Assembly (NCBI GenBank): GCA_029261035.1
Contig: JAJDCD010000010.1
Location: 142,612-206,611, forward strand
DNA: 64,000 bases
From: Candidatus Omnitrophota bacterium
GTDB lineage: Bacteria > Omnitrophota > Omnitrophia > Omnitrophales > JACROU01
Direction: 5' to 3'
Part shown: positions 16,218-64,000 of the stretch, piece after piece
Layout of the letters: every line of letters starts with the position of its first letter
How positions within the stretch are numbered: position 1 is the stretch's first letter
Notes under the pieces: model-generated
Databases searched by the model: none
What the model was told of the DNA's origin: nothing
The model's input: the letters and a program-made list of their open reading frames with translations, nothing else
Translations under genes and position numbers: made by a program

Positions 16218-16233
16218 TTTAATTCACTAACTA

Positions 16234-17313: not shown

Positions 17314-17339
17314 CTGCTTCCTTTGTCTTTCGCGAAGGT

Positions 17340-18131
17340 TTATACGGGAGTTGAAATCCCACCGTCTTTACGAATTCTCCAAAAGTGAACAGCCATTAAA
17401 ACTGCTGCAGCCAATGGAATAGCGACACAATGTAATATATAAAATCGAAGTAAAGTAGCAGCGCCCACAAATCGACCGCCTAATAATGCAAAACGCACAT
17501 CGTCTCCAGAGTGAACCAAGCTCACTCCAGCAATATTTAAGAAAGAGGCTCCAGGTCCTTCATGCCCCAAGAATGGCGTTGCTCTCGCCATATTAGATCC
17601 AACAGTAATAGCCCAAATAGCCAATTGGTCCCAAGGCAATAAGTACCCCGTAAAACTTAAAAGAAGGGTCAGAACTAATAAAATAACACCAATATTCCAA
17701 TTAAACTCGCGTGGCGGTTTATAAGAACCTGTCATAAAAACACGAAACATATGAAGCCAAACAGCAATAACCATCGCATGAGCACCCCAACGATGAATTT
17801 CTCTCATAATACCTAAAGGAACATGATCCCTTAAAGCCATAATATCGCTAAACGCATACTCTGCTGTTGGACGATAATAAAACATCAACAAAACACCTGT
17901 AATCACTTCCACAAGAAAAATAAAAAAAGCCAAGCCACCCATACACCAGGTATAGCTGATTCGGATTCCCGACTTACGTGCGGTAACGGGATGAAGATGG
18001 AGGAAAACATTCGACAAAATTACAAGCGAACGATTTCTCTTATCCGTAGGCTTTCCATGACGAAAAATAGATTTCCAAATTTGAGATTGTCTAAAATTTT
18101 CCCACAAAGATTTTTTCGGTGCTGTTGCCAT
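17340..18131 (-). CDS. Cytochrome b6-like (N-terminal heme-binding half of cytochrome b)
   Basis: 263 aa, four TM helices with paired His (HRWGAHAM..., LHCVAIPL...). Typical of split cytochrome b6. Confidence 0.85.
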   Translation of the reverse strand: MATAPKKSLWENFRQSQIWKSIFRHGKPTDKRNRSLVILSNVFLHLHPVTARKSGIRISYTWCMGGLAFFIFLVEVITGVLLMFYYRPTAEYAFSDIMALRDHVPLGIMREIHRWGAHAMVIAVWLHMFRVFMTGSYKPPREFNWNIGVILLVLTLLLSFTGYLLPWDQLAIWAITVGSNMARATPFLGHEGPGASFLNIAGVSLVHSGDDVRFALLGGRFVGAATLLRFYILHCVAIPLAAAVLMAVHFWRIRKDGGISTPV

Positions 18132-18132
18132 A

Positions 18133-18780
18133 TTAAACCTTCAGAATGGATTGAGGATCTTTCCATTCCCCTTTCTCTTGTTGATATATTTTTCCTTTAT
18201 CTACTAGAACTTGTCCATCATCAGCCAAACTAATACGGTACCGTTCTAACGGTCTTGGGGCTGGACCTTCAAAGTTAATACCCGTTTTATAAAAACCACT
18301 CCCATGACAAGGACACTTAAACTTTTCTTCTCCTGGCAACCAAGTAGGAGTACACCCTAAATGAGTGCATACCGTAGACAATGCATAAATACCTTCTGGT
18401 GAACGAACCATCCACACACCAAATTTATTTTTGAAACGCTCATCAACTTGTCCGATTTGAAACTCAGATGGAATACCTGCTTTAAAGGTCATTGGCGGTT
18501 CAAATAAAACATTGGGAAAGAAAAAACGTAAAACTGAAGTTAAAAAACCGGCCATTGCTGCAGAAAAACCAATCCAACCAATTGCAAACCATGAAATAAA
18601 TTTTCTTCTAGATACTCCAGGTTGTTGGGGTGGAGATGTTTTTTGAGCAGCCGAACTCACGGCAGGCTTAGCTGCAGGAGCTGGAGTTACAGGCTTGGTT
18701 TCCTCAGACGGTTTAGGTTGAGATTCGGAAGCAGGTTGTTTTTGCTCCTCTGGTTTTTCTGGTTGTTTTTCGTCAGTCAT
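18133..18780 (-). CDS. Rieske 2Fe-2S protein with twin-arginine signal and a Pro/Lys/Glu-rich N-terminal extension
   Basis: CTHLGCTPTW and CPCHGSGF Rieske boxes. Tat-like SRRKFIS motif ahead of the TM anchor. About 55 low-complexity residues (PEKPEEQKQPASESQPKPSEETKP...) precede it. Confidence 0.85.
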   Translation of the reverse strand: MTDEKQPEKPEEQKQPASESQPKPSEETKPVTPAPAAKPAVSSAAQKTSPPQQPGVSRRKFISWFAIGWIGFSAAMAGFLTSVLRFFFPNVLFEPPMTFKAGIPSEFQIGQVDERFKNKFGVWMVRSPEGIYALSTVCTHLGCTPTWLPGEEKFKCPCHGSGFYKTGINFEGPAPRPLERYRISLADDGQVLVDKGKIYQQEKGEWKDPQSILKV

Positions 18781-18923: not shown

Positions 18924-19790
18924 TTAAAATTCATGGGTTAATACCAGAATTGCGGCCTGCCTTACCTTCAAACTAGGGTCTTTTTCGGATAAGGTTTCAA
19001 TCTGAGTTTGAAGCTCTGTCACTCTAAGATTCGCTACTCCCTGAAGAGCACTCAGAATAATAACCTCTTTTTCATTGTCATTTAACTTTGGGAAAGTATC
19101 TAAATAAGCTCGATCTAACAATCTTTCTAAAATAAAAACACCGCTACCATCCTTTAATTGCGATAATGAAAGAGCTGCATTCCAAGCAACATCAGGTTCT
19201 GTATCTCCCAACAAAGGTTTCAAATCTGAGACAACCGAAGTGTCCCTAAAAGTCCCCATAGCAAATGCCGCAATTTTTCTTACGGGAGCGCGAGAATCTT
19301 TCAACAAGGGAAGAACTGAATCTTTAGCCCGAGGGTCTTCCAAAACAGATAAGGCCCAGACACTATAAATCACCGTATCTTCTTCAGCATCACTCAAACT
19401 CTCAATCAACACGGGCACCGACTCCGACTGCTTTAAATAACCTAATGCCAGCGCTAAATAATTTCTTACTCGAAGATCGTATCGAGCACGATTTTTAAAC
19501 ATCGGAATAATTTCTCGGGTGAGTTCTTTTTGTAACTGAGGGTCTGCTTTATCTTCAGTTACTAAAAGCCCTGCCATACTATAAGCCGCTTGCCATTTCT
19601 TATTATCACTTCCCGTTTTAATTTCGACTAAATAGTCTTGAACTGTTTTCGTTTTGAATGTAATAAACCCAAAAGCGTAAAACATCCCTACAGAAATGGT
19701 GACAATTAACAATGGAATTAAAAAAAGACGCATTACCGAGTTATAAGGTGAGTCTTGTTGTTCATCAACTTGATTTTGTTCTTCGCTCAT
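18924..19790 (-). CDS. HEAT-repeat (PBS-lyase-like) protein with N-terminal TM helix
   Basis: 288 aa. Repeated segments (LALALGYLKQSESVPVLIESL, SVWALSVLEDPRAKDSVLPLL, AAFAMGTFRDTSVVSDLKPLL) match HEAT-like repeats. Directly upstream of the Rieske gene in the same orientation. Confidence 0.55.
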   Translation of the reverse strand: MSEEQNQVDEQQDSPYNSVMRLFLIPLLIVTISVGMFYAFGFITFKTKTVQDYLVEIKTGSDNKKWQAAYSMAGLLVTEDKADPQLQKELTREIIPMFKNRARYDLRVRNYLALALGYLKQSESVPVLIESLSDAEEDTVIYSVWALSVLEDPRAKDSVLPLLKDSRAPVRKIAAFAMGTFRDTSVVSDLKPLLGDTEPDVAWNAALSLSQLKDGSGVFILERLLDRAYLDTFPKLNDNEKEVIILSALQGVANLRVTELQTQIETLSEKDPSLKVRQAAILVLTHEF

Positions 19791-22569: not shown

Positions 22570-25500
22570 TTACGCCGAAATAAGAATGCGAAGCTGTGCA
22601 TGTATCTCAGTAACCCATCGAGCCACCATATCATTCAAGAAACTATCCCGCATATGGAATATAGAATCAATTTGATCGAGCTTGTCTGGATGCGGATTCG
22701 TAATCGGTGTTGCTAAGAAATCAAGCCCAATATCAATAGCGGCAATTCTAGCAACCAAACGATTCTCATCTCGAACAGAGTCGAGACTGTTCCCTCGGAT
22801 TACTTGATCTGAAGAAATCTTTCGAACCCCTTTAACAAAAACACCTTCTAAGTCAACCGATGGCGCAACAACAACAACTTGTCCTTTAGGAAAACGTGCT
22901 GTTTGCATCGTAACAAAAAACTCAAGAGCTTCCGCAACTGTTTTACGACCCACTTTTTGAAAAGTGATAAATTTATTTTTTACTTCTGGATCCACTTTTA
23001 AGTTCTTAAGAACACTAAGAACTCTATCTTTTGTGCTATTATTTGGCACCAAGAAAGCAATATTCTTTTTGTTTGGGCCTCTTAATGCGAGCGCAACAGG
23101 AATTAAAGTTTCTTCTAACACCTTCTCTGAAACATCTCCCAAAGGAAGTACAAGTTGTCCAGGTAAGCTACTGGTACTTTTATTAAAAATTCGAAGAGCT
23201 GCTGCTTTTGCATCTAATGTAACTGGCGAAATTTCAATACTTGTTGGATCTAACAAAGCAGTTCCTGAAATAGTAACAGACGTTGTGATCGAATCGCCCA
23301 AGCTACTTGCGACAGCTAAATTTGTTTTCTTAGCAAACAAACTAACCAAACCCTGAATTTGTCTTTTAGCACTAGAATCCTCTATCTCAACCTCTTGTAT
23401 GGCATCTAAATGATATTGCGTAAATTTTGTAGGCGCTTTTGCCAACAAACTTCTAAGAGAAGTTAATAGATGTCGTAAATGTCCCACACTTCTAAAATTT
23501 TGCAATTCTGTAACAAGTCCATCTACTTTTGCTACTGTAATCTCTTCCGGAGCTAAAGTCTGCCTTGCAGAAGACCCTCTCTCTTTTTTATGACGATGAT
23601 CTCTAAGATGATCATTTCTCCGTCCTAAGCTATCGGCAGTAACCTCTTCTAAAATTTTTGCTACAGCTGATTTAGCTTGAGGAGTTACAAAAACTTGATT
23701 TACACCTAGGCTAGAAGCAGATAAAGGTTTCGCTGAAATAGGTGTAATATCTTCCTCTCCCACAAACATGGTAAAAAATCCGGAGTTTCTTAAACTTTCT
23801 TTTGCACCTGCCAACAACCTGTTTTCTCCACTTTCAATAAGTGGAATTCCTGCCTCTAACATTTGCTTTTTATTACGAGCAAGCAACATATTTCTTGCAT
23901 CCATAATCACAGGAACTTCAACTCTACGACCACCAATCACAACACTTTTAATAGGTTCCATTATTTGATGCGCTTCCACTAAATCTAAATTTTTTATTTC
24001 GTCCCAGTCCGTCATGAGCGCTATCAAGTTGCTTCCCTTAATTGCTTGTTTCATCGTTTTCGCAACTTCCACCTTATCGTCAAACTTAACAGTAATTAAA
24101 CGTTTCCATCCCTTTTTAACAATTCCTTCAATTTCTCTTTGGGTTAAATTTAAACTTACTGTATCAACATCCGCATCATATTTATCTTCACCCCTACTAC
24201 CAGACAAAACTTGATTCCGTACTTGTCGCAACAACCCTGATATATCTTTATCTAAAATACTCATATCTTCTTTTAAAATCTGGTACGTAAAATCAAATAC
24301 AAAGTTTTGTTGTGCTTCTTCTAAAGGATCATGAAAAGAAACCGTTGCTCCCAAATCCAATAACTCTCGGATCACAACCATCGAACGCGTTTCACGAACA
24401 TCGTCTGTATTCGCTTTAAATGCAAGTCCTAAAACACCAATACGAACACCCTCTAATGGGAGATCTGTATTTTCTGCTACATCTCCTATCGAAGCTAATG
24501 TGCTTTTGATTTTACCCACAACAACCATAGGTGCTCGTCCGTTTGTTGAAATCGCTTTCTCAGCAATTTTAAAATCAACTCCACTTTCTTTAGCACGATA
24601 AAGAGCTTCAGCGGTATCTTTAGGAAAACAAGAGCCTCCATACCCTGCTCCAGCAGCCAAAAATGCTGCATTAGGGTTACGAACATCATTTTTCATGATA
24701 CGAACTACTTCTTGATAAGAAGCTCCAACTTCTTCACTCAGCCAAGCAAGTGCATTTGCAAAAGAGATACTGATAGCCAACCAAACATTGGCCGAATATT
24801 TAATCATAGGCGAACTTTTACGGTCTGTCACAACTACAGGATGCTTGTGCCGTGCCTGCAAAGGAGCCCATAACTCTTGTAATTTTTTTGATGCGAATTC
24901 TGATTCCACACCAAATACATTTCTGTCTGGATTTAAAACATCGTGAACCGCACTCCCTTCTCTTAAGAACTCGGGATTACTTGCGATATCAAAATGGCTC
25001 CCTTCTTTAAGATCCATTTCAACTAGAACTTCTTTCATTTTATCGAACGCAATTGGAGGTACTGTTGACTTCACAACAATAACTTTCCTTCTAGGAGTTC
25101 TTCTGTCACTACTCCTTAGATTACTTTTAATACCCCAACCAGCAGTTCTTGTTGCTGAAAGTAAATAAGCTAAATTAGCTTCCCCTTTATTAGGTCCTTC
25201 TTTAATTTCTGGAGTTCCAACTGCAATATAAATAATATTAGCATCATGAATCGCTGCTTCAGCACCACTGCTATAGAACTCCGACTCTTCCAATGGAGAA
25301 TGTTGAAAGTGAAGTCGCCCATCATCACGATTCTTTTTTACCAATTCTTCTAATCCAGGCTCCCAAATAGGCAGCCTTACTTCGGGTTGATTAAGCCCTT
25401 CAATCTTATTTCTATCGATATCCAGAGTCGTAACATCATGACCCAAATCAGACAAAACAGTTCCTGTAATTAATCCCACATAACCCGTTCCGACCATAAC

Positions 25501-28500
25501 CACTTTTTTTCTATCTACAGCTGCAGGATCGTCAAATTTTATAACCTTGTCCATATTGGCTCTATCTTTAACCTTTTTAAAACTAGGACCAACAGAAGGA
25601 CGGCCTAAGCTAAGGTAGTTAATCCCTACATCTGCTACTTCCGTAAGAGAAACTTCCTGAGTTCCATCAGATTGGCGACCAAAAATATTACGCCCATCAA
25701 AAAGAGGCTTTAGTTTCAAAACTCTCTTCATCTTTTGTAACCCAATATTGCGAATCACATCATGATCCGCTGCAATCACCACTGCATTACTTTTTCGGAT
25801 AGCCTCTTCTGGAGAGTCTACAAACTCAAAAAAGTTTACGTTTAATCGACTTCTAATAATTTTATCCAACGATGTATCTTCTCTAGCTTCCGTAACCCAT
25901 TTCATAAACTCTTCTTGAACGTCAGGGTCATAGATATAAATTTTCTTAATTCCTTTAGCCGCTAACCACAACACTAAATCTTTAGCAGGGGAAGCTAGCA
26001 AACGCGCTCCATTTCCTTTAAAAGCAACTCCTAATAACGCCATCTTAATATCTGAAACTCTTTTTCCACTTATGGTCGACATATTTTGATCGATCATAGA
26101 TTTAAACCAATCAATTTGCGCATTATTAGAATCGCGCACCTCTGTAACACCATGAAATGCGAGTTGAGGTGGTAAAACATCATTTTCCCCAGCCCTTTCA
26201 TTTCGCTTAAATAACTCATCAAATTCCGAGGCCGCTCTTTCTAGAAAAGCTCTTAACTTTCCCCCAAAAGCAAAAGAAGGACTAATATTATGCAACCCCA
26301 CACGCCTATCCAAACCAGCACCAAACGCAACCATTCCCATATCTCCTTTTAACTTACGTACAACTTGTGCAATCGTATTAAAAGAAGCAAGCTTGGTACC
26401 CAAATAAGAGAGAATTCCCAAGTAGCCCAACTCCGCACTCGCAGAGTCCGTCACAACAAACATTTTTTCATCTAAGCCTTTCGGAAAAAGAAGCGCTTTC
26501 AAACTTTCCTTTGTGTTTTCTTGAGCTTGTTTCAAATTTCTAAATTTATCTGCATCATCTTCATCTACAATCGATTCCACCTTAGGAAATCCTAAAATCA
26601 ACTGCTGACTATTCATATCCTCGATTTGAGATCCTTTACGCAACAACTCTGGAGCGTACACAACCGTAAAATTATCATCCTCTCCACTAACATCATAAAT
26701 CGTCTGCATAATATTTTCTGTTCGTCCTGTAGGCATATGGCTTCGAACAATAAATGTTTTATGACTTCGATCTCCCAAAGCTCTGAGCCTCTTTAACGCT
26801 TCACCAAATCCTCTACTACGCTGATTGACAACTTTCTCAAATCGATCCGCATCTTTGTCTAAGAAAAGACCCGCATCAATCATAATGACATTATGTTCCT
26901 CTAAAACCATAATCTGTGCAATTTGATATTTCAACTCTTTAAGCTTTGCACCCGATCCTTGTAAAACAGATGAATAAAAAAGATCCTCTTTTATACTAAT
27001 TAATGTTGGAGTCACTTCTCCACTATGTCCAAAGAGCACTTTTTCTTGAATAAAATCTTTTATCCAAGTCAAATGCTTCTCAATCTGGATCATTCTTTGC
27101 GTAAGAACCTCGTCTACAGTCTGTTCTCCTAAGTCCAATTGCTGCAAACCTACTTTGTCATCTAATTTCTGTAGTTCTTTAACTTTTATTTTTTCTACAT
27201 TCAATTTCAACCTTAACCAATCCGAAACATCATCAATATTTATTTCTGTAATATCCGCATCTTTCTTTCCTTGTAAAATAACCTCAGATCTTCCTGGTTC
27301 ATGGTTCTTTGAATTTGCAGAATCCAAATTTCTCTGCGTATCATACCAATCAATCGAGATCTGACGCCCTGCATCTGTTGCTCTTTTAAGCAACACAGCA
27401 CTCGTCGTTACACCCACATCACCAACACCCCAAAAAGCAATTTTTTCTATTGGGGTTATTTCAGTAACCACCTGATCAGCACCCAAAGATGCCGCCGTAG
27501 AAACGGAAACATCCACCCAAAGACTAGACTGATTTGGGCCTAAAAATTGAACACGCAACTTATCGCCCTCTTGAGCCGTAACTTTTGCTGACGTTAAAGA
27601 CGATAAAGCTGTGCCATCAAAAGCTCGTCTTCGAAGAAGAGAGTTTGCTCGTCTTTCTAAGCCGCGTTGATAAGCTTTAGAATCTAATTGATAAGCAGAA
27701 GATACAGGTTCTGTAACCAAAGATCGAATTAACATGTGCCCTAAAGTTTCCGGAGCATCCAAAGAGTTCCTTGTTAATCGTGCTGCGATTGAAATTTTAT
27801 TTAATTCTGATTTAATAAATGCATCTGAATTAATTTGATCTTTTCCTAAAATTAAATTTAAATATTCATGCGCTTGCTCAGACAACTCTGCTTTTGGACG
27901 AATAGATAAGAAGGAAACATCTTCTTCTGTAAGTTTTTGCTGAATTCCACCACCATGAAAACCACCAGTAATAAGAACCGCCTTTGATTTACGTTCTTGC
28001 TTCAAGAAAGAAAGAGACTTTTGAATCATCGCACCTTCTCGCTCGCGAGCCACTTCATAAAAACGAAGCGCACGATCGAAAAACGAATCCTCCAATTGAG
28101 ACAAGAGAGAAACTCTATTTTCCATCTCTCTTTGAATCGTTTGGATCTTTTCCGTTAGTAAAGAAGGCTTCCAGTCAGAAGCTAAAGATTGAATTTTTTG
28201 AGCTTCATCACGACTTAATTCGAGCTTAAATAATTTTTCATAAAGATTAATAGTTTCATCTGCTTTGAAAATTTGTTTTTCCAACCGTGTTTCAAGAAGA
28301 GCTTCAGCAATGCTATTTTCCAAAGCACTTTTCTCCTGAAACAAATCAGACCCTACTAATTCTTTTTGATAAATAAGTTGACGAACCAAGGAGGGTAATA
28401 CCTTACTGCGATCTAATGAAAACTCATATTCTTCTGCAGCACTCCAAAGAAGCTCAAAATAACCTCTTGGATCTTGAAACAAAAGTAAATCACTTTGAGA

Positions 28501-29448
28501 GCTTGCATTCAATGAAGGAACTCCCTGTCTTAAGGAACTCCAATTTTCTGACAAAATCTTTTTAAACGGATTACTTTCTGGGATTTTAGTTAAAAGAAGA
28601 TGTTGAATGTATAACCATTCTTGAGCCCAAACCTTAAGATCAATATCCTTACTTTCTCTTTCAAGGGTAAATAGCTTACGAATATTCTTTAAATCAAGAG
28701 GCGAGGCTACATATTTCTGTTCCAGTTCATTTAAATGTCTTAAATAATTTAATAAGTGCAGTTTTCCATTTTCAAACTCGCTCTTTTTCTGATCCCATAC
28801 CCGTAAATCACCTAAATAAACTTTATCTTTTGCTTTTTGAATCTGGGTTTTCCACTGACCCACTGCCTTGAGCGCCTGTGGAGAGAATTTGTAAATTTCA
28901 CGAAAAAGCTTTAAATTTTCTTTGTATAACTCAGGGTTCTCCACCCCTAACACTTTAACTTTTGATTGTTTCTCAATAGCAAAAACTTCAGCCGCTGAAA
29001 ATTGTCCTTTTTTCATCCAACGATGAGCAGCACTTACATTCATTTTCGCATCAGGGAATAAGTTAAAAAGACTAGAATCAATAGAACTATCGGCCCCTTC
29101 AACAAAAACAACGTCAACACCTTCTGTTCGATAAAGGTAATCTAAAATTTGTTTAATTCTATTTTGCGTTCCTAAATGAGCATGCGCATCTTCCAAATGA
29201 TAAATTTTCATTCTTTCTTGCTTTGTTTGATAAGCATCAACAACAAAGCCTAATTCATTTGGGAAACCAAAAGAAGAAGACATGGACTGTTGTGTAACTG
29301 AAGGGGTGCTTACAAACACCTCGGCCCAAGCAGGATTAACTCCTGAAAAAATCATAAAAAATGCCAATGCTAAGGAAAGCATTTTCATAATCATCTTCTT
29401 TTTTAAAGTTTTTAATCTTCTTCGCATAAGTTTTTCTTCTTTCATCAA
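22570..29448 (-). CDS. Giant (2292 aa) signal-peptide protein with tandem UDP-glucose/GDP-mannose dehydrogenase-family modules (the first degenerate, the second intact) flanked by unknown domains
   Basis: N-terminus MMKEEKLMRRRLKTLKKKMIMKMLSLALAFFMIFSGVNPAWA|EV resembles a Sec signal. Residues about 1410-1850 form a complete UGDH (Rossmann KVVMVGTGYVGLITG, NPEFLREGSAV, catalytic GAGYGGSCFPKD, GLAFKANTDDVRETRS). Residues about 640-1400 form a divergent UGDH-like copy with the catalytic Cys replaced (IAFWGVGDVGVTT, YAPELLRKGSQ, SFAFGGKLRAF, LLGVAFKGNGARLL). Confidence 0.8.
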   Translation of the reverse strand: MMKEEKLMRRRLKTLKKKMIMKMLSLALAFFMIFSGVNPAWAEVFVSTPSVTQQSMSSSFGFPNELGFVVDAYQTKQERMKIYHLEDAHAHLGTQNRIKQILDYLYRTEGVDVVFVEGADSSIDSSLFNLFPDAKMNVSAAHRWMKKGQFSAAEVFAIEKQSKVKVLGVENPELYKENLKLFREIYKFSPQALKAVGQWKTQIQKAKDKVYLGDLRVWDQKKSEFENGKLHLLNYLRHLNELEQKYVASPLDLKNIRKLFTLERESKDIDLKVWAQEWLYIQHLLLTKIPESNPFKKILSENWSSLRQGVPSLNASSQSDLLLFQDPRGYFELLWSAAEEYEFSLDRSKVLPSLVRQLIYQKELVGSDLFQEKSALENSIAEALLETRLEKQIFKADETINLYEKLFKLELSRDEAQKIQSLASDWKPSLLTEKIQTIQREMENRVSLLSQLEDSFFDRALRFYEVAREREGAMIQKSLSFLKQERKSKAVLITGGFHGGGIQQKLTEEDVSFLSIRPKAELSEQAHEYLNLILGKDQINSDAFIKSELNKISIAARLTRNSLDAPETLGHMLIRSLVTEPVSSAYQLDSKAYQRGLERRANSLLRRRAFDGTALSSLTSAKVTAQEGDKLRVQFLGPNQSSLWVDVSVSTAASLGADQVVTEITPIEKIAFWGVGDVGVTTSAVLLKRATDAGRQISIDWYDTQRNLDSANSKNHEPGRSEVILQGKKDADITEINIDDVSDWLRLKLNVEKIKVKELQKLDDKVGLQQLDLGEQTVDEVLTQRMIQIEKHLTWIKDFIQEKVLFGHSGEVTPTLISIKEDLFYSSVLQGSGAKLKELKYQIAQIMVLEEHNVIMIDAGLFLDKDADRFEKVVNQRSRGFGEALKRLRALGDRSHKTFIVRSHMPTGRTENIMQTIYDVSGEDDNFTVVYAPELLRKGSQIEDMNSQQLILGFPKVESIVDEDDADKFRNLKQAQENTKESLKALLFPKGLDEKMFVVTDSASAELGYLGILSYLGTKLASFNTIAQVVRKLKGDMGMVAFGAGLDRRVGLHNISPSFAFGGKLRAFLERAASEFDELFKRNERAGENDVLPPQLAFHGVTEVRDSNNAQIDWFKSMIDQNMSTISGKRVSDIKMALLGVAFKGNGARLLASPAKDLVLWLAAKGIKKIYIYDPDVQEEFMKWVTEAREDTSLDKIIRSRLNVNFFEFVDSPEEAIRKSNAVVIAADHDVIRNIGLQKMKRVLKLKPLFDGRNIFGRQSDGTQEVSLTEVADVGINYLSLGRPSVGPSFKKVKDRANMDKVIKFDDPAAVDRKKVVMVGTGYVGLITGTVLSDLGHDVTTLDIDRNKIEGLNQPEVRLPIWEPGLEELVKKNRDDGRLHFQHSPLEESEFYSSGAEAAIHDANIIYIAVGTPEIKEGPNKGEANLAYLLSATRTAGWGIKSNLRSSDRRTPRRKVIVVKSTVPPIAFDKMKEVLVEMDLKEGSHFDIASNPEFLREGSAVHDVLNPDRNVFGVESEFASKKLQELWAPLQARHKHPVVVTDRKSSPMIKYSANVWLAISISFANALAWLSEEVGASYQEVVRIMKNDVRNPNAAFLAAGAGYGGSCFPKDTAEALYRAKESGVDFKIAEKAISTNGRAPMVVVGKIKSTLASIGDVAENTDLPLEGVRIGVLGLAFKANTDDVRETRSMVVIRELLDLGATVSFHDPLEEAQQNFVFDFTYQILKEDMSILDKDISGLLRQVRNQVLSGSRGEDKYDADVDTVSLNLTQREIEGIVKKGWKRLITVKFDDKVEVAKTMKQAIKGSNLIALMTDWDEIKNLDLVEAHQIMEPIKSVVIGGRRVEVPVIMDARNMLLARNKKQMLEAGIPLIESGENRLLAGAKESLRNSGFFTMFVGEEDITPISAKPLSASSLGVNQVFVTPQAKSAVAKILEEVTADSLGRRNDHLRDHRHKKERGSSARQTLAPEEITVAKVDGLVTELQNFRSVGHLRHLLTSLRSLLAKAPTKFTQYHLDAIQEVEIEDSSAKRQIQGLVSLFAKKTNLAVASSLGDSITTSVTISGTALLDPTSIEISPVTLDAKAAALRIFNKSTSSLPGQLVLPLGDVSEKVLEETLIPVALALRGPNKKNIAFLVPNNSTKDRVLSVLKNLKVDPEVKNKFITFQKVGRKTVAEALEFFVTMQTARFPKGQVVVVAPSVDLEGVFVKGVRKISSDQVIRGNSLDSVRDENRLVARIAAIDIGLDFLATPITNPHPDKLDQIDSIFHMRDSFLNDMVARWVTEIHAQLRILISA

Positions 29449-29697: not shown

Positions 29698-30792
29698 TTA
29701 AACACTAAAGCGAAAAAACATGATATCACCATCTTTTACTTGGTATTCTTTGCCTTCCAGACGCATAAGCCCCTTCTCTTTAATGCCTTTTTCAGAGCCT
29801 AGTTCGTTTAATGCGGTGTAGTCAAATACCTCAGCCCGAATGAAACCTCTCTCGAAGTCCGTGTGAATTTCTCCAGCGGCCTGAGGCGCTGTCACAAGGT
29901 TTTGTACGGTCCAAGCTCGAACCTCTTGCTTTCCTGCAGTAAAAAAGGTGATTAACCCTAAAAGACTGTAACCCGTGCGAATAAGCTGGTTCAGACCGGA
30001 CTCTTCAAGGCCCATATCTTTCAAAAACTCCACCTTCTCATCTTCTTCCAACTCAGCAAGCTCAGCTTCCACTTTTCCAGACACCACAACCACCTGGGAA
30101 TTCTCTTTTTCCGCCAACTCTCTTACTTGCTGAACCAAAGGCCCACCTTCCGGTAAATCATTTTCATTAACGTTACAGCAGTACAAAACAGGCTTGGATG
30201 TTAAGAGCTGAAGGTCTAATAACACTTTTTTTTCATCCTCAGACAAACCTTGTTTTCTAACAGGAGTTCCATCTTCAAGACTTTCTTTCACTTTAACGCA
30301 AACTTCTTGCTGCGCTTTAGCATCCTTGTCTCCAGTCCGTACTAGTTTTTCATTTCTTTCTACACGCTTAGTCACCGTATCTATGTCTTTAAGACATAGT
30401 TCTGTATCAATAACCTCGATATCCCCGACAGGATCCACCTTGCCTGCAACATGCACAATATCATCATCTTCAAAGCAACGCACCACATGAAGAACAGCAT
30501 CTACCTCTTTAATGTTTCCTAAAAACTGATTTCCTAAACCTTCTCCTCTACTCGCTCCTGCAACTAAGCCTGCAATATCAACAAACTGCATCGAAGTAGG
30601 CGTTATTTTATCGGGTTGGTATATTTCAACTAAACGATCCAATCGCTTATCCGGGACAGAAACAATTCCTACGTTCGGTTCTATGGTACAAAAAGGATAA
30701 TTCGAAGCGCCTGCTCCTGCTTTAGTCAACGAGTTAAAAACAGTCGATTTTCCTACGTTCGGTAATCCTACAATTCCACATTTAAATCCCAC
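29698..30792 (-). CDS. ychF: Ribosome-binding ATPase YchF (Obg-family GTPase with TGS domain)
   Basis: GIVGLPNVGKSTVFN P-loop, FCTIEPN, DIAGLVAGAS, C-terminal TGS domain. The likely start is GTG 30792 after AAGGAG. The track start at 30855 adds an unlikely leader. Confidence 0.85.
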   Translation of the reverse strand: MGFKCGIVGLPNVGKSTVFNSLTKAGAGASNYPFCTIEPNVGIVSVPDKRLDRLVEIYQPDKITPTSMQFVDIAGLVAGASRGEGLGNQFLGNIKEVDAVLHVVRCFEDDDIVHVAGKVDPVGDIEVIDTELCLKDIDTVTKRVERNEKLVRTGDKDAKAQQEVCVKVKESLEDGTPVRKQGLSEDEKKVLLDLQLLTSKPVLYCCNVNENDLPEGGPLVQQVRELAEKENSQVVVVSGKVEAELAELEEDEKVEFLKDMGLEESGLNQLIRTGYSLLGLITFFTAGKQEVRAWTVQNLVTAPQAAGEIHTDFERGFIRAEVFDYTALNELGSEKGIKEKGLMRLEGKEYQVKDGDIMFFRFSV

Positions 30793-30819
30793 AGAAATCT
30801 CCTTATCAAAATTTAAAAA

Positions 30820-30925
30820 TAAAAAGTATAAAGTAAAAACTATGGACACATCCAAATATTTGGATGTGTTTATTTTTAAATTTTAAATTATGGTTTTTAA
30901 TTTTTACTTTAAAATTTTGAATCTC
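30820..30925. repeat. AT-rich MITE-like element (family H) with central perfect palindrome ACACATCCAAATATTTGGATGTGT (30846-30869)
   Basis: Arms AAAAGTATAAAGTAAAAAC / GTTTTTAATTTTTACTTT around the core. Homologous to the element at 5318-5435. Probably also acts as the terminator of the upstream ychF paralog. Confidence 0.6.
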
Positions 30926-32020
30926 TCACACATTAAATCTAAAGTGAACAACATCCCCATCTTGAATTTCGTAATCTTTTCCTTCTACTTTAAAACAACC
31001 GTTTTCCCTAGCTTTTTGAAGAGATCCCGAATCAATTAAATCCTGACACTTTACAACCTCTACCCGAATGAAGCCTCTTTCCATATCGGAGTGCACATGC
31101 CCCGCAGCCTGAGGAGCCTTCGTTTCTTTAGGAACGGTCCAAGCCCGAACTTCACCATGGTCATGGGTAAAGAAAGTAACCTTATCCAAAAGTTCATAAC
31201 CCATATGCACCACTTTAGCAGGCCCTGATTTTTCAAGTAAAAACTCTTCTATAATTTCTTCCTTTTTCTCCGCATCTTCCATTCGGGACATCTCTTCTTC
31301 AAGAATGCCACATAGATATACAATTCGAGACATATCCTCCTCAGAAAAAGCATTTAACTCTTTTTCCCACTTCCCTCCGCCCGGCAAATCATCTTGGCTT
31401 ACATTAACGCAATATAAATAAGGTTTGATTGTAAATAACTGAATATCTTTTAAGGAGTGTACTTGTTCATGCGTAAGATCCAAATGTCGAATCGGATGAC
31501 CACTTTCCAAAGCATCTTTTAATCCATGCAACAAATCAAAAAGATCTTCATCAAATTTTCCTGAAGCTTTCTTTGCTTCGAGCTTGGCAATGCGTCGCCC
31601 AACGGTTTCACTGTCTTTATGAATCAGTTCATTATTTACGATCCGAATATCGCGCATGGGATCAATGGAACCTAAAAAGTGAACGGCATCTTCACTGTCA
31701 AAAATTCGAACTACATGAAGTAATACATCTACATCTCTAAGGTGAGAAAGAAATTGGTTCCCCATTCCCTCTCCTTTAGAAGCTCCTTCTACCAAACCCG
31801 CCACATCCAAAAATTCCAAATGGGCCCGAACTACGTGTTTCGGATCAATAATCTTAACGATTTTTTCCAGCCGCTCATCCGGGACAGGAACAACCCCTTT
31901 TTTAGGTTGAATCGTAGAAAAAGGAGCAATTGAGATTTCCTCTTTTCCATTAGCTAAAGTATTAAAAATCGTGGTCTTACCTACATTAGGCAACCCCACA
32001 ATTCCACAACGAAAACCCAT
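30926..32020 (-). CDS. Second, divergent YchF-family GTPase paralog
   Basis: MGFRCGIVGLPNVGKTTIFN, FSTIQP (instead of FCTIEPN), DVAGLVEGAS, and a C-terminal TGS-like domain. SD GAGGAG lies upstream. Confidence 0.8.
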   Translation of the reverse strand: MGFRCGIVGLPNVGKTTIFNTLANGKEEISIAPFSTIQPKKGVVPVPDERLEKIVKIIDPKHVVRAHLEFLDVAGLVEGASKGEGMGNQFLSHLRDVDVLLHVVRIFDSEDAVHFLGSIDPMRDIRIVNNELIHKDSETVGRRIAKLEAKKASGKFDEDLFDLLHGLKDALESGHPIRHLDLTHEQVHSLKDIQLFTIKPYLYCVNVSQDDLPGGGKWEKELNAFSEEDMSRIVYLCGILEEEMSRMEDAEKKEEIIEEFLLEKSGPAKVVHMGYELLDKVTFFTHDHGEVRAWTVPKETKAPQAAGHVHSDMERGFIRVEVVKCQDLIDSGSLQKARENGCFKVEGKDYEIQDGDVVHFRFNV

Positions 32021-58811: not shown

Positions 58812-58935
58812 ATCTATTAGCGAATAGCGTAGAGCGTTTAGCGTATAGGAGTAAAACCCTCTCCTTATCAGGGAGAGGGGAAATTGAATTTGAATTACTA
58901 TACGCTCCACGCTAAATGCTCTACGCTATTATTAC
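58812..58935. repeat. Inverted pair of heptamer-repeat arrays (TAGCG-type) flanking a family G hairpin (CCCTCTCCTTATCAGGGAGAGGG)
   Basis: Forward array TCTATTAGCGAATAGCGTAGAGCGTTTAGCGTATAGG at 58812-58848. Reverse-complement array CTATACGCTCCACGCTAAATGCTCTACGCTATTAT at 58899-58933. Confidence 0.65.
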
Positions 58936-61900
58936 GCCATACTCGCAATCAAGTTCACAACTTTTTGTTTCAACAAAGCATTCTTCAAGAAACGTTCAAT
59001 GAAACGCTCTGTCACTCGATAACGATCATTTTCAAAAACAACATAGCCTTGTTTCAATAAGGCTTCAGGATCCTGCAACAGCTTCATCGCTAAAGCAAGA
59101 CTCACAAAATCCGTATAGAGCTGTTCTTCTTCAGACGCAGCTCTCTCGCCTATCGTCATCGGCCTGTTTCGATGGATCTCCAGCTCCCTTAAAACAGAAT
59201 CAATCACTCCATCGTCATCCATCCAAACCACTTCATCCCTAGATTCTAAACCACTATCCTTTTTTATCCAATTCAAACTTCTTCTTCCCTGCTCATCAAA
59301 CTCTACGGTTTTACCCGAAAGCAACGAATCTAAAAATTCATCGGGTTGCATCTTAACGTTTGGTAACGAAACAAAATAACCATGTTTTCTCATTTGAGCT
59401 TCTGTAAGAGAACCTTTTCGAATCATCTCCATCGCTAAACGGCTCATCGTTTCCTTATAAGCCTTATTATCATAATAGATCACAACCGTCTTTCCCTGAG
59501 CAATTTGCTGCAACACTGCATCAGGACTCATTTCTCCAGAAATCACAACCGCAAAGTTCGCGACTCCAAGGACATCAAACAACTCCTTCAAAGCAGGCTC
59601 ATCCTGAATTAATGTATTCATACGTTGTTGCATGGATTCCCATTCAGAAAATAAAATATCATAAATTTGCTGATAAATCGTTGGGAAATAAACACGCAAA
59701 TCCAAACTAATCATTCGACCTGCAGCATCCGTCATAATCAATATAGACTCAACTGAATTCTGATATTCCACATCTAAGACAGCACCCAAACTCTCCGCTT
59801 CGGCCTTATCCAACCATTCTTCTTCTAGTTCACCTTTAAGCAATGTGTCTGACAATCGATCTTTTCTTAACGCTTCAGCATACTGAACCAGCTGACCTTG
59901 TACTGTATCTAATTTTAAAACCTCTATTTTTTCTATAATTTCCAGAATCTCAGGTGTTTTTTCCAAGCGAATAAAATCCAGTTCTCTTTTTTCGTTGTGA
60001 CCTAAATTAATTAAATTAAAGGTAACTGTCTGCCTAAAACGCATTCTGTATTCTTGAGAAATAGAATGAATGGCCTTTTCCGCTCTATCCATATAACCCC
60101 TTTTACCCTCTCGACTCAAACTCTGCGGTAAAGCCAAGTACAGAGCAATCAAAATAAAAGCACTCTGGGATTCTTCACTTTCTTCTGAGAGGCTTAAAAC
60201 ATCTTCCACAAATGCTTCATCAATCGATTTATCTGAAGCAGCATAAGCCTCTAACGTATTTAAAAAAGACATTAAAACTCCCGAGGCATTTTTGGACTGA
60301 GCTATATCTATAAGAAATTGAAGGTTTAAAAACTCCTGATAAATGGGATTCTTAAAAGCCAATTCAACAAACATCTTCCAAGATCCAAAAGTAACATGCT
60401 CGGGAGGAACATTTTTAAGAGCCAGAAGTTTTTTTATTTTCTCTATATCTTCTTCAGAAAGGGCTCCAAAATATTCATCAACCCTTTTCAAGTTAAGAAA
60501 ACTTTTATATGCATTTTGAGAACGAGAATAAAATTGAAATAACAAATCAAGCCATTTTGCACAATCTGCCTTTTTGATGGAGTCCGTACGTTTCACTGAT
60601 TCAAGAATTTGATACACTTTTTCAGAATTATCTTGGGATAATATTGTTTTCCAGCTTGGATCAAGCTCTTCCCAAGGGCCCAATGCATGCTCTAAGTTCT
60701 TTTCATATTGTCCCAAGCTCTGAGCCTTAACTCGATCGAGCCATTCTCCTTCGAGCTTTTCTTCTCCCTTTGGTTGCTGGGTCTTTTCTTCCTTTTTCCA
60801 AATCTGATCCAGATTATATAATTGTTCTTGAACAGATTTTGGGTCCGAGATAGATAACCTTTCTAATACTTCTAAAAGTTCATCTCCTTTCTGATGTTTG
60901 ATTACAAAAGCCTCATGAACCATAGCTTCTCTCTCAGGCCCTATATGGATGATTTCACTTAACACTGAGGATAAATCTTTCTTTTGGTCGAGTTCTATAT
61001 CGCTTATAGTCATAAATATTTTTTTAAGCCTTTCGAACACTTGACCCCTCTCAAACACTGTTAAATCATTGGGGAAACTTAACAGAAGGATAAAAAATAT
61101 ATTTCTTTCTACAGATATCATTTTCTGCAATTCATGTAATTGACTTAATAACAAGGTATCAATAATACCTCCCCCATCAGCATAAGTCTCTAATTGATCA
61201 AAATATATTCCCGCATCCGTATCTGTATTATTTCTCTGAGAAATCATATAAGTAATTAAATCCCAATCTAATAATTCTTGATACTCTCTGTGTTTTTTTG
61301 TAAGTATTAAAAATGCTGTCCATGCGTTGATATAATAAATAAACCCATCTCCCTGAAGACTAAACTGATTAAAAAGTTGCTGCATTAACTGTAAAATATT
61401 TGTATTTAAAGAGTTCGTTGGGTCTGTATATACATGGAATGCAAATCTTTTCCATACCCCAGGAACTTCTTCCAAATCCAGACGCTGAGCCCTTGCCGTC
61501 AAAGACTGAAAAAAATCAAGCCAATCAACCAAATCTTCTGTCGTCTTAATGACTTGCTTGTCAACAAACAGGCTAAACACATCAATTAAATCAGCATAAG
61601 AAGAAATTACTTCCTGAGACTGGTCCGACAATAACTCAAAAGGAATCAGCTGAGAGAGATTAGACTCTTCATACTGCTCCTGTGCATTTCCCAAACTCTG
61701 CGCCACAGAAAGATCTAACCATTCCGTTTCTGTATTATTAGGCTCTATTATTTGCTCAGAGCTCATGTACTCATCAATCCATTCGTCTATTATTCTGTTA
61801 ACAGTTTTTGTTATTTCCTCTATAGGCAACACGTCAAGTCGTTCTAAAATTTCCAGAAGCTCTAAACCTTGCCGCTTGTCAATAAACAAACGTGCATATC

Positions 61901-63989
61901 TTTTAGATAGTCTGTTAAGAGCTCTATACAGTTCCTGATTTAGTCCCGTAAGATCACTGATAGAGTTAAAAATAGTTTCTATTCTATTAATATGATTTTG
62001 GTCTGTATTTGGAATGGCTAATGCTATTAGTATTGCTAGAGATTGAGAGCGCTGATCCCCATAGAAAATATAGTTTTGGCCGAATTTTTGAACGATACGT
62101 ATAAAACGGTTTAAGATATCAGGAAAAATCACCGGATTTATTAAATAAAATTCTCTAAGACGCTTTTTCCACTTATGGTAATCTAGACTAGAATTAACAA
62201 ACCCTTTATCTGTTAAAATTTGAATGAATTTTATAATGTCTGGGTGTTGATTCAACATTTCACGGTCTGAACTCTTAAAGTTATTGAACGGCATTCTACC
62301 TTCAAAAAATTCAACCGCAGAGCCTGGATAAAGGTCCTCTGCAGACTTTTCTCCTAAACTCTTTGCTTCTACTTGTTGTTGTCTTGCTCTATACCCCTTT
62401 CGCCTTAACTCACGCACTCTCCGTTGAAATCTTTTAAATGCGTGCTCTCCATGATAATCAACAAATTCTTTCTCATATTTGTATAGTCTTGAGAGGAAGT
62501 CGGATTGAGCTTCTCCAAGCAAAATTTGGGTTTCATAATCATCATTCTCATTTGCCGCCCTCATAATTTTTTTTGAGACATTTATCATAGAATGAGGCCA
62601 TCTTCGATCCATATTTTCTATCATCACTCGTGCTGGAATATTTTTAAGGTAATAAATAAAAAGAGGGGCTAACTCACGGTAGCCTAACCCTCTAGAAATA
62701 CCATACAATTCATCAAAATCTAAACTGAAGGCGCTTGTTTGAGCTACTTTTTCGTAGAACTCTTCTATGTCGCCTCTTTTTTCAATTTGCCGAAGAACTA
62801 TGATAAATTTTCTTGCGTTGTAGGCAATCAACTTCTTTTCTCTCTCCCATAAATTAAAAAAGGGCATTTTATATTTATCGTAGTCTAATTGAATCAAGGT
62901 TGAGAGAACATTGAATTGAATCATATCCACTTTATACAGTGTCTTTTTAAAAGGGTTCTGATACATATACTCTAAAGCTACTTTATTTTTTTCATTAATG
63001 GCTCTTCTGTACAAAGTATCAAAAAGCTCCTGAATTGGAACTCCCTCTTCCATCGCCTGCATTACAAGAGGTAAAAGCTTCTCTGTTTGCTTTCCTTTTT
63101 CAGCCACATCCGTCCACTCCAAAATAACATCATGTATTTCATTGTATCTCTCGATAGCTTTCGGAGTTCCTGTGTAAACGACTGGATTAACAGCGAAACG
63201 TTTTGGAAATAACTTCAAATCCATAACTGCTTCGTAAGCATATTTTTCAGGATTAAGTTTAGACAAATATTTTAAGGTTTTAGCTCTCTTTCGATACCAG
63301 TAAACATGATTCGCAGGACCCGCCATCATCATAGCGTACCAATTATTCACCGTTTTGTTATAAGCCACTTCAGGAGAGGCAAAGCCAAAGAAAAGATAAT
63401 AAAGAAGAGGGGCTATTAGTACCAATGCTAAGAAGCTCTTTTTCCACCAAGACATTTTCTGAGGAGGCGCTCTTTCAGCATTGATTAAACCGTCATCCCC
63501 TTCAGCATATTCATCTCCAGCATCTACATCCCCCAAACTAAACCCTTCTGCTTCCGGATCAAATTGATACACTTCCTGTTCTGTGTCTTTCGTGTAGGGT
63601 TCGTAAACGTTTGTGTTGGGGTTCCATTGAATGCGTGCAGGCTCCGATCTAAATTCCTCTTCTCCTTCTTTTTGGTATTTAAACTCTAATACCCATTTTC
63701 CGGTTTCATTGTGAAGGGTCAGTTCTACCTTTTTTAGATTAGTCACAGCTCCAAAAGCGAGCACCTTCTTCATTCGCTCTCCATTCGGTTGGGGGAAACT
63801 TTTCCGTAATTGTCCTTTAGACATCTGAACCAACTCTTCAACCCCTCCGACTTTTCGACTCTCTCCTTCTCTTAACTCATCAAAGGCTTCTTCTATTTTT
63901 CTTTCTAGCCTTTGCTTTTCGGTCTCATACTTCTTTCCATTCCAATAGACTCTTGCGATTCCTTCTTCTTTGCTCTCAGACTCATACAT
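58932..63989 (-). CDS. Giant (1685 aa) hypothetical protein with one TM helix and three repeated EWLD...(A/K)(Q/E)SLG modules
   Basis: Acidic N-terminal about 175 aa, a single TM (FLALVLIAPLLYYLFFGF), then about 1480 aa predicted helical. Internal repeats: EWLDLSVAQSLGNAQEQYEE, EWLDRVKAQSLGQYEKNLEH, EWLDKAEAESLGAVLDVEYQ. No catalytic motif recognised. Confidence 0.7.
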   Translation of the reverse strand: MYESESKEEGIARVYWNGKKYETEKQRLERKIEEAFDELREGESRKVGGVEELVQMSKGQLRKSFPQPNGERMKKVLAFGAVTNLKKVELTLHNETGKWVLEFKYQKEGEEEFRSEPARIQWNPNTNVYEPYTKDTEQEVYQFDPEAEGFSLGDVDAGDEYAEGDDGLINAERAPPQKMSWWKKSFLALVLIAPLLYYLFFGFASPEVAYNKTVNNWYAMMMAGPANHVYWYRKRAKTLKYLSKLNPEKYAYEAVMDLKLFPKRFAVNPVVYTGTPKAIERYNEIHDVILEWTDVAEKGKQTEKLLPLVMQAMEEGVPIQELFDTLYRRAINEKNKVALEYMYQNPFKKTLYKVDMIQFNVLSTLIQLDYDKYKMPFFNLWEREKKLIAYNARKFIIVLRQIEKRGDIEEFYEKVAQTSAFSLDFDELYGISRGLGYRELAPLFIYYLKNIPARVMIENMDRRWPHSMINVSKKIMRAANENDDYETQILLGEAQSDFLSRLYKYEKEFVDYHGEHAFKRFQRRVRELRRKGYRARQQQVEAKSLGEKSAEDLYPGSAVEFFEGRMPFNNFKSSDREMLNQHPDIIKFIQILTDKGFVNSSLDYHKWKKRLREFYLINPVIFPDILNRFIRIVQKFGQNYIFYGDQRSQSLAILIALAIPNTDQNHINRIETIFNSISDLTGLNQELYRALNRLSKRYARLFIDKRQGLELLEILERLDVLPIEEITKTVNRIIDEWIDEYMSSEQIIEPNNTETEWLDLSVAQSLGNAQEQYEESNLSQLIPFELLSDQSQEVISSYADLIDVFSLFVDKQVIKTTEDLVDWLDFFQSLTARAQRLDLEEVPGVWKRFAFHVYTDPTNSLNTNILQLMQQLFNQFSLQGDGFIYYINAWTAFLILTKKHREYQELLDWDLITYMISQRNNTDTDAGIYFDQLETYADGGGIIDTLLLSQLHELQKMISVERNIFFILLLSFPNDLTVFERGQVFERLKKIFMTISDIELDQKKDLSSVLSEIIHIGPEREAMVHEAFVIKHQKGDELLEVLERLSISDPKSVQEQLYNLDQIWKKEEKTQQPKGEEKLEGEWLDRVKAQSLGQYEKNLEHALGPWEELDPSWKTILSQDNSEKVYQILESVKRTDSIKKADCAKWLDLLFQFYSRSQNAYKSFLNLKRVDEYFGALSEEDIEKIKKLLALKNVPPEHVTFGSWKMFVELAFKNPIYQEFLNLQFLIDIAQSKNASGVLMSFLNTLEAYAASDKSIDEAFVEDVLSLSEESEESQSAFILIALYLALPQSLSREGKRGYMDRAEKAIHSISQEYRMRFRQTVTFNLINLGHNEKRELDFIRLEKTPEILEIIEKIEVLKLDTVQGQLVQYAEALRKDRLSDTLLKGELEEEWLDKAEAESLGAVLDVEYQNSVESILIMTDAAGRMISLDLRVYFPTIYQQIYDILFSEWESMQQRMNTLIQDEPALKELFDVLGVANFAVVISGEMSPDAVLQQIAQGKTVVIYYDNKAYKETMSRLAMEMIRKGSLTEAQMRKHGYFVSLPNVKMQPDEFLDSLLSGKTVEFDEQGRRSLNWIKKDSGLESRDEVVWMDDDGVIDSVLRELEIHRNRPMTIGERAASEEEQLYTDFVSLALAMKLLQDPEALLKQGYVVFENDRYRVTERFIERFLKNALLKQKVVNLIASMA

Positions 63990-64000
63990 AAACTCTAATT

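Follow-up and report, generated by a model that had tools for sequence, protein, structure and literature searches.

A signal-bearing 2292-residue protein of an Omnitrophota bacterium with a dead and a live UDP-glucose dehydrogenase: a candidate exported and processed enzyme carrier

Why would a bacterium place two copies of UDP-glucose dehydrogenase (UGDH), one of them without its catalytic residues, behind a signal peptide in a single chain of 2292 residues? The question is raised by an open reading frame (ORF) at 22570..29448 on the minus strand of a 64,000-nucleotide stretch, hereafter the window, from a Candidatus Omnitrophota bacterium (assembly GCA_029261035.1, contig JAJDCD010000010.1, positions 142,612 to 206,611). 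The answer we favour, giving it about an even chance, is that the product may be a Sec-targeted modular enzyme carrier, probably processed at the junctions between its modules and releasing a covalent UGDH pseudo-dimer outside the cytoplasm. Within Omnitrophota, the protein belongs to a very large and scarcely described family, of which it is a small member.

The frame is uninterrupted over 2292 codons and a stop. It starts with TTG, and the next codon is an ATG at which the public protein P0001, encoded on a 207-kb NCBI contig, begins; P0001 is identical from codon 2 onward. Residue numbers given here count the TTG as 1, and the numbers of P0001 are therefore one lower. A sequencing or assembly fusion of separate genes, or their mis-annotation as one, is an explanation to which we give next to no credence. 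The frame is unbroken and matched by an identical public protein, and two orthologues with 35-37% identity and the same order of modules, P0002 (1930 aa) and P0003 (2161 aa), are found in independent assemblies (NCBI, ENA, JGI and Logan, all four in the case of P0003). Upstream synteny is also kept, the order RlmN - Sortilin/Vps10-like - YchF - YchF being common to the window and P0003, and the layout is shared by the whole family. The single 6.9-kb ORF proposed by an earlier, sequence-only reading of this DNA is thus genuine.

The only Pfam and NCBIfam matches in the 2292 residues are UDP-glucose/GDP-mannose dehydrogenase domains. Module 2 (aa ~1313-1880, 23809..25512, minus strand) is a complete UGDH. 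It matches PF03721, PF00984 and PF03720 with E-values of 2e-54, 4e-31 and 2e-37, scores 410 bits with TIGR03026 (cut-off 189.8 bits), and its alignment with 4a7p, a solved UGDH, covers the whole module (E 1e-74). Its GTGYVG, NPEFLREG and GGSCFPKD lie on the same motifs of 4a7p, and GGSCFPKD is equal residue for residue. Like bacterial UGDHs, module 2 comprises the three domains together with the catalytic residues; an insertion of ~80 aa is located in its C-terminal domain. With the equivalog models it scores below the cut-offs, both for TuaD (397 vs 700 bits) and for AglM (319 vs 670 bits).

Module 1 (aa ~668-1290, 25579..27447, minus strand), recognised by Pfam and by its alignment with the solved UGDH 2y0c (E 1e-16), keeps the family fold but not the catalytic Cys, Lys and Asn of UDP-glucose/GDP-mannose dehydrogenases. 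Its catalytic Cys is replaced by Leu (FGGKL) next to a 4-residue deletion, Lys by Tyr and Asn by Leu, and NPEF reads APEL. The N-domain has acquired a large insertion, while the C-terminal (UDP-binding-type) domain is well kept. In P0002 and P0003, module 1 likewise lacks Cys, Lys, Asn and NPEF and has a degenerate GxGxxG, and module 2 keeps all of them. The sequence-only reading, which saw a UGDH-like module without its catalytic Cys followed by a complete UGDH, agrees with these alignments on the first point (2y0c and the orthologues) as well as on the second (Pfam, TIGR03026 and 4a7p).

Since the dead copy is kept over such divergence, it can be expected to have a role. Bacterial UGDHs are dimers formed through the central domain, so the simplest role of the dead copy would be that of a built-in partner, and we infer that module 1 acts as a permanent covalent dimer partner of the live module 2. 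Such an arrangement, a tandem "dimer" in one chain, with one copy dead and both behind a signal peptide, differs from bacterial UGDHs such as 4a7p and BceC (2y0c). The dead/live tandem occurs in 3 protein clusters only, and may provide a clean natural example of a pseudoenzyme retained as a built-in dimer partner.

The N-terminus, MKEEKLMRRRLKTLKKKMIMK-MLSLALAFFMIFSGV-NPAWA-E, has the n/h/c layout of a Sec signal (aa 1-42, 29323..29448, minus strand). By inspection and a hydropathy scan it comprises a basic n-region, a 15-aa h-region (10-15 residues are usual) and a c-region A-W-A with small residues at -3 and -1, and the cut is predicted before E43. The same scan found no further transmembrane-like (TM-like) segment in the 2292 residues beyond the N-terminus. 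These features are shared by the family: an N-terminal hydrophobic segment is present in 155 of the 174 proteins starting with Met, the n-region has a median net charge of +3 (at least +1 in 97% of members), the uncharged N-terminal stretch has a median of 22 residues and often ends with A-x-A, and 124 of the 150 long members have no second TM-like segment. The layout and its family-wide recurrence bear out the earlier prediction of a Sec-type N-terminus with an AWA-E cleavage site, at least as far as sequence features can do so. Export of a folded, NAD-loaded enzyme by the Tat pathway was considered and rejected: the query contains RRR, but no twin-arginine is conserved among the N-termini of its relatives, and the length of the proteins is far too great.

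The cysteine content points in the same direction. The protein has a single Cys in 2292 residues, while ~35 would be expected at the rate of the cytoplasmic-type ORFs of the window (P 1e-14), which have 1.55% Cys on average. The non-haem exported and membrane proteins of the window have 0-0.6%, and the median of the carrier family is 0.35%. Exclusion of cysteine is a documented trait of exported proteins (PMC2823432). The near-exclusion of Cys speaks, independently of the signal peptide, for a genuine exit from the cytoplasm and favours an action outside it; we consider export of the query highly probable. The sole Cys, Cys1607 (codon at 24628..24630, minus strand), is the UGDH nucleophile of module 2. 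P0002 also has the catalytic Cys only, and P0003 has it together with one within an insertion. In contrast to bacterial UGDHs, the query has had all non-catalytic cysteines removed. As the only Cys is the catalytic thiol, this thiol appears to be under selection, which suggests that module 2 works as an enzyme.

The region between the signal and the UGDH pair is the part that the query shares with its wider family. For ~600 unrecognised residues, the sequence-only reading had suggested a possible TraB/TIKI-like nature, and the structure model together with the catalytic motif supports this. The AlphaFold2 model of the N-module (aa 56-549, 27802..29283, minus strand), built with a 22-sequence alignment, has a predicted local distance difference test score of 85.3 and a predicted template modelling score of 0.79. 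It shows a small alpha/beta core of the TIKI/TraB/Ere/ChaN type, with a parallel beta-sheet and helices on its flanks as in the TIKI fold, interrupted by a helical insertion of ~310 residues. The 22-sequence alignment has invariant H, Q, E, Y, FY, R, GG-H, P and Y positions, and D87-x-H89, E117, R470 and H498 are conserved in 93-100% of 43 sequences. Active members of the superfamily carry a set of two His and two Glu, and in Bcr135 and RRSP the paired His and Glu have a spacing of 28 residues (PMC6254334). The N-module has such a set and the same spacing of 28 (H89 to E117), though its first acid is Asp instead of Glu.

At the sequence level, the query N-module has no Pfam match at E<=0.1, neither to TraB_PrgY_gumN nor to Erythro_esteras or Cofac_haem_bdg, and no relative in the PDB. 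Sub-threshold matches to PF04187 ("Tiki superfamily, ChaN") were obtained for 3 of the 22 relatives (best E 0.021). Foldseek comparison of the model with the PDB gave nothing significant, probably owing to the dominance of the helical insertion. We therefore place the N-module, on its modelled fold and its catalytic motif, in the TIKI/TraB/Ere/ChaN/RRSP superfamily and not in a curated family. It differs from the TIKI, TraB-PrgY, Ere, ChaN and RRSP proteins in the ~310-aa insertion that splits its core and in the Asp already mentioned, and from TIKI superfamily members also in being joined to a signal peptide and kilobases of cargo, and in falling below the Pfam thresholds. The superfamily includes site-specific endopeptidases: TIKI trims Wnt3a, and RRSP cuts Ras (PMC6254334).

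The insertion itself (model residues ~117-429, ORF aa ~172-484) has a weak Foldseek likeness to components of ClyA-family alpha-pore-forming toxins. Its matches to SmhB, AhlB, XaxA, YaxA and ClyA are non-significant (E 0.1-1.5, probability <=0.15) and can serve as a lead, not as evidence, for a membrane-active role.

A full-length search found ~40 further proteins of 1500-3900 aa, mostly annotated as Candidatus Omnitrophica, which share only query residues ~15-535 and carry wholly different enzymes: phosphoglucomutase, phosphofructokinase, glucose-6-phosphate isomerase, transaldolase, glutamate dehydrogenase, GlmS-type domains, glycosyltransferase and protein kinase. With the N-module profile, HMMER was run exhaustively against 1.84 billion cluster representatives (clustered at 50% identity) and retrieved 10,263 proteins at E<=1e-3, 7,243 of them at E<=1e-30. 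In the best 150 of the 10,263, the N-module always starts at residue ~40-65, while the lengths vary from 519 to 5568 aa. Scanning of the GTDB species genomes with one degenerate pattern confirmed at least 535 N-module loci, nearly all in genomes titled Candidatus Omnitrophota and several per genome; the genome of the window is not among these. P0174 (887 aa), apparently complete, has nothing but a signal segment, the N-module and a C-module, and ends with ...ILRSL. As it has no enzyme cargo, the two ends can be regarded as a chassis on which cargo is optional. Consequently, the sequence-only view that the architecture was not a described one holds for the dead/live UGDH tandem with its 3 clusters, but not for the general design, which is common: it occurs in at least 10,263 clusters, and the GTDB species genomes have at least 535 loci. 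Commonness in relatives was one of the conditions that the sequence-only reading had named against itself, and this condition is partly borne out.

At the other end of the query, the C-module (aa 2052-2292, 22573..23295, minus strand) is a Rossmann-like alpha/beta domain with a terminal amphipathic helix, ending with ...L-I-S-A-COOH. The earlier description of the C-terminus as unknown holds. No Pfam or NCBIfam domain lies beyond the UGDH modules, and a search with the C-module alignment gave no match either. The ending [S/A]-[L/V/A/M/I]-COOH is found in 134 of 178 family proteins (75% vs ~5% expected), the commonest dipeptides being SL (50), SV (26), SA (22), AA (16) and AL (10). These ends follow an amphipathic helix. 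Such tails resemble those recognised by C-terminal processing (Prc/Ctp-type, PDZ-bearing) proteases.

The suggestion that the chain is processed comes from short peptides that separate the modules. The query contains four copies of A-x-S-L-G, while 0.089 would be expected (Poisson 2e-6), and this number was reached in none of 3000 shuffles. Junction 1 (A-A-S-L-G, aa 652-656, 27481..27495) precedes the Rossmann strand of module 1 by ~15 aa, and junction 2 (A-S-S-L-G, aa 1911-1915, 23704..23718) follows module 2 directly. Junction 3 (A-D-S-L-G, aa 1938-1942, 23623..23637) is followed by a spacer of ~104 aa (aa 1943-2046, 23311..23622) with a basic, His-rich start, which is unconserved in the orthologues. 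Junction 4 (A-S-S-L-G, aa 2047-2051, 23296..23310) directly precedes the C-module; all these features are read from the minus strand. The codons differ from site to site, and the four copies are therefore not recent repeats of DNA. In the alignment of the three orthologues, the motif is an island of identity within indel-rich, otherwise unconserved linkers. It precedes the first Rossmann strand of module 1 by 12-25 residues and recurs directly after module 2. This placement makes the two UGDH copies one bracketed unit. An LSLG at aa 1280-1282, between the UGDH modules, was rejected as a fifth junction, as it has no A at -2 and is unconserved in the orthologues.

Other family members show repeated motifs of their own. 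RSExR peptides are found in P0039 (RSESR, 9 copies, P 1e-15), P0037 (RSEMR, 5 copies, P 1e-10), P0013 (RSEVR, 6 copies, P 9e-10) and P0035 (RSELR, 6 copies, P 4e-8), while P0011 has SSLG (6 copies, P 3e-9) and P0022 has SSAG (4 copies, P 2e-7). In all of them the first copy is located 545-720 residues from the N-terminus, just past the N-module, the last one 225-420 residues before the C-terminus, and the spacings between copies are domain-sized. A cut at S-L/G, between L and G, would yield ...SL, the commonest natural ending in the family. The idea that each protein repeats its own C-terminal tri- or tetrapeptide internally to form the junctions was rejected, the observed/expected ratio of 1.14 being within the permutation control.

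The A-x-S-L-G motif is not confined to the query. A second giant ORF of the window (58932..63998, minus strand; at least 1688 aa, open to the window end) has four copies, the last one 285 residues before its C-terminus ...NLIASMA. It has 1 Cys in 1685 residues, one TM-like segment and no Pfam match, and its modules are ~220-330 aa long, three of them ending with ...EWLD...A-x-S-L-G. This ORF is probably a further member of the same system, with its N-terminus beyond the window. In the P0003 genome, a gene for a 3769-aa protein (L081 12488-18486) starts 2 nt after the UGDH giant and encodes a signal segment, an N-module (E 3e-74) and the cargo domains His_Phos_1, Inositol_P and PfkB. Seven x-S-L-G sites occur in its first 1999 residues and enclose the complete His_Phos_1 and the start of Inositol_P. 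As it directly follows P0003, carriers can sit in tandem, and as both the second window ORF and the neighbour of P0003 share the motif with the query, the junction motif seems to be a property of the lineage and not of the gene. In the window, the position of this 3769-aa neighbour is occupied by cysE. The Inositol_P family, seen here as Cys-poor cargo, is also represented in the window by a stand-alone gene of the inositol monophosphatase family (6748-7551, plus strand, 267 aa) with an ordinary 1.5% Cys; housekeeping and cargo copies may coexist.

Taken together, these data are consistent with a family layout in which a signal peptide, a hydrolase head of the TIKI superfamily, at least one cytoplasmic-type enzyme as cargo and a C-terminal alpha/beta module would be separated by short lineage-specific junction peptides, A-x-S-L-G in this organism. 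We propose that the protein is exported by the Sec pathway, as the signal peptide and the exclusion of Cys suggest, with the signal either cleaved or kept as an anchor. Cleavage at the junction peptides would follow, effected by the N-module of the chain itself or, in trans, by a protease of the lineage, a step for which the pattern of motifs is the indication. This would release a covalent UGDH pseudo-dimer of ~140 kDa that should stay "dimeric" at any dilution and may carry out NAD+-dependent oxidation of UDP-glucose or a related NDP-sugar outside the cytoplasm of the producer. The cytoplasm or lysate of a prey or host cell and a periplasm-derived compartment are candidate sites of such oxidation. 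Cutting of the query at its junctions seems to us somewhat less than an even bet, and the identification of the N-module as the responsible protease is doubtful. As the TIKI-fold hydrolase that every carrier has, the N-module is the obvious candidate; an equal possibility is a trans-acting protease of the lineage, given that the motif differs between lineages and the active site of the N-module stays the same.

Several points weigh against this proposal of an exported, processed carrier. The difference in junction motif between lineages with a conserved N-module active site does not itself mark the N-module as the protease. A statistically clear exact junction 4-mer was found in only 12 of the 150 long family members, so the rule is perhaps not general; most of the family has more degenerate junctions, if any. 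C-modules of different subgroups show no homology by phmmer, jackhmmer or hhalign, and a conserved C-module is therefore claimed for P0001-P0003 only. Finally, the NAD+ and UDP-sugar needed by UGDH are unexpected in the periplasm or in open water. The proposal in its broadest form, a polyprotein system of thousands of Sec-exported carriers in which a TIKI-fold protease would cut its own chain or others of its kind at S-L/G, RSExR and SSAG and release Cys-free metabolic enzymes for work in prey cytoplasm or lysate or in a periplasm-derived compartment, is in our opinion unlikely.

Part of these observations would be accommodated if the protein acted outside the cytoplasm as an intact, unprocessed multi-enzyme scaffold, anchored or free, with the junctions being linkers of another role such as O-glycosylation sequons, docking sites or protease-resistant hinges. 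The evidence for export (signal features and Cys exclusion) is the same for such a scaffold, every junction motif (ASSLG, RSExR, SSAG) contains Ser, as expected of a site for glycosylation or phosphorylation, no dedicated protease gene is located nearby, and the sharp repeated motif is missing from most family members. However, exact pentapeptide islands in drifting linkers, shared by different giants of one genome, are more typical of the recognition site of one enzyme, and the family always carries a hydrolase of a superfamily with site-specific endopeptidases; we regard the scaffold as rather improbable. The availability of NAD+, ATP and sugar nucleotides in the cytoplasm, together with the cytoplasmic-type, cofactor-dependent nature of all recognisable cargo in the family, would fit a membrane-tethered metabolon with an uncleaved anchor and its enzymes facing the cytoplasm, where UGDH would feed UDP-glucuronate to envelope polysaccharide synthesis. 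Giants with TM segments only are read in this way in one preprint (bioRxiv 10.64898/2026.06.07.730766), and West-Roberts et al. allow that a predicted extracellular location may reflect an error of topology. Against it, the positive n-region (median +3), the short h-region and the A-x-A-like ends predict an N-in/C-out orientation or cleavage, a second TM segment is absent in the query and in 124 of 150 members, and near-total exclusion of Cys is unexpected for a cytoplasmic protein of this genome, whose cytoplasmic-type proteins have 1.55% Cys on average. We consider a cytoplasmic metabolon quite unlikely.

The same cofactors would be supplied by the cytoplasm of another cell if the whole protein or its UGDH unit were injected as a host- or prey-directed effector that drains or rewires UDP-sugar pools. 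Omnitrophota are ultra-small, and many have traits of host dependence or predation and giant surface proteins; constant ends, variable cargo and junction sites recall MARTX toxins, and the weak, non-significant Foldseek matches of the N-module insertion to ClyA-family components would fit as well. But no translocation machinery or domain was identified, the likeness to pore toxins is below significance, the neighbouring genes are of the housekeeping type, and nothing ties this organism to a host. An effector role is accordingly very improbable in our estimate, and the processed, exported carrier is the interpretation that we retain. A host-directed effector was one of two functions suggested by the sequence-only reading, the other being a machine that modifies envelope polysaccharides; both are conceivable, and the near-exclusion of Cys favours an extracytoplasmic action.

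Its closest counterparts among known systems are giant proteins of the same phylum. [quoted passage not shown] These giants were suggested to be cleaved, at points that are stated to be unknown (bioRxiv 10.1101/2023.11.21.568195). A Nature Microbiology study has linked giant ORFs to host-dependent lifestyles. The query resembles the preprint giants in phylum and in combining a signal peptide and/or TM segments with several metabolic Pfam domains on one chain; it differs in its length of 2292 aa, far from the 10,000-aa or 30-kb threshold, and in having a signal peptide only. Signal-bearing multi-enzyme giants of Omnitrophota were thus already on record, and in this respect the general design is less novel than the sequence-only reading had supposed. 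The TIKI-like N-module, the junction motifs and the pseudo/active UGDH tandem were not found described by term searches of the two preprints or by literature searches that paired Omnitrophota with TraB or with UDP-glucose 6-dehydrogenase; these searches did not extend to Cys exclusion.

MARTX toxins offer a further parallel, as they are very large secreted proteins with constant ends and a mosaic of exchangeable enzymatic cargo that is set free by cuts in the linkers between domains; secretion and linker cleavage are, for the query, predicted and proposed, respectively. The MARTX protease cuts after Leu. The N-module shares its fold with RRSP, one of the MARTX cargoes, while in the query the TIKI-fold domain is the constant head and not cargo. 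The query also differs in having a Sec signal instead of type I secretion and metabolic cargo instead of cytotoxic effectors, and the domains that define MARTX (RTX/glycine-rich repeats and the cysteine protease domain) were not found in it by Pfam. The likeness is one of layout and function only, not of membership.

Giant proteins are a hallmark of Omnitrophota. In a compact member of 2.3 kaa, the rules of a chassis that recurs in more than 10,000 protein clusters can be read: a signal peptide, a TIKI-fold hydrolase head that retains its catalytic residues, cargo enzymes between short conserved peptides, a C-terminus of fixed type, and hardly any Cys beyond what catalysis requires. If the polyprotein interpretation is true, the giant proteins of the phylum would have, in the junction motifs, their first predicted cleavage points. 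If these rules are confirmed, a whole phylum would place glycolytic and sugar-nucleotide enzymes outside the cytoplasm, a point of direct relevance to the feeding of these nanobacteria on other cells.

No tRNA or Rfam feature was found within the 64-kb window. No protease or secretion gene adjoins the ORF, whose neighbours are genes for CysE, RNase H, cytochrome bc-type proteins and two YchF-type GTPase paralogues. The latter (29698-30855 and 30926-32020, minus strand) stand in tandem directly upstream of the giant, and the tandem is kept beside P0003. A gene for a 947-aa multihaem cytochrome c adjoins cytochrome b and Rieske genes (13374-18780, minus strand) and is followed, after the cytochrome genes, by one for a signal-bearing HEAT-repeat protein without any Cys (18924-19790, minus strand). 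From 1 to 64000, every 2-kb bin has a negative GC skew (-0.12 to -0.31), and almost all long ORFs are read from the minus strand; the whole window belongs to one replichore, and its gene-strand bias is strong.

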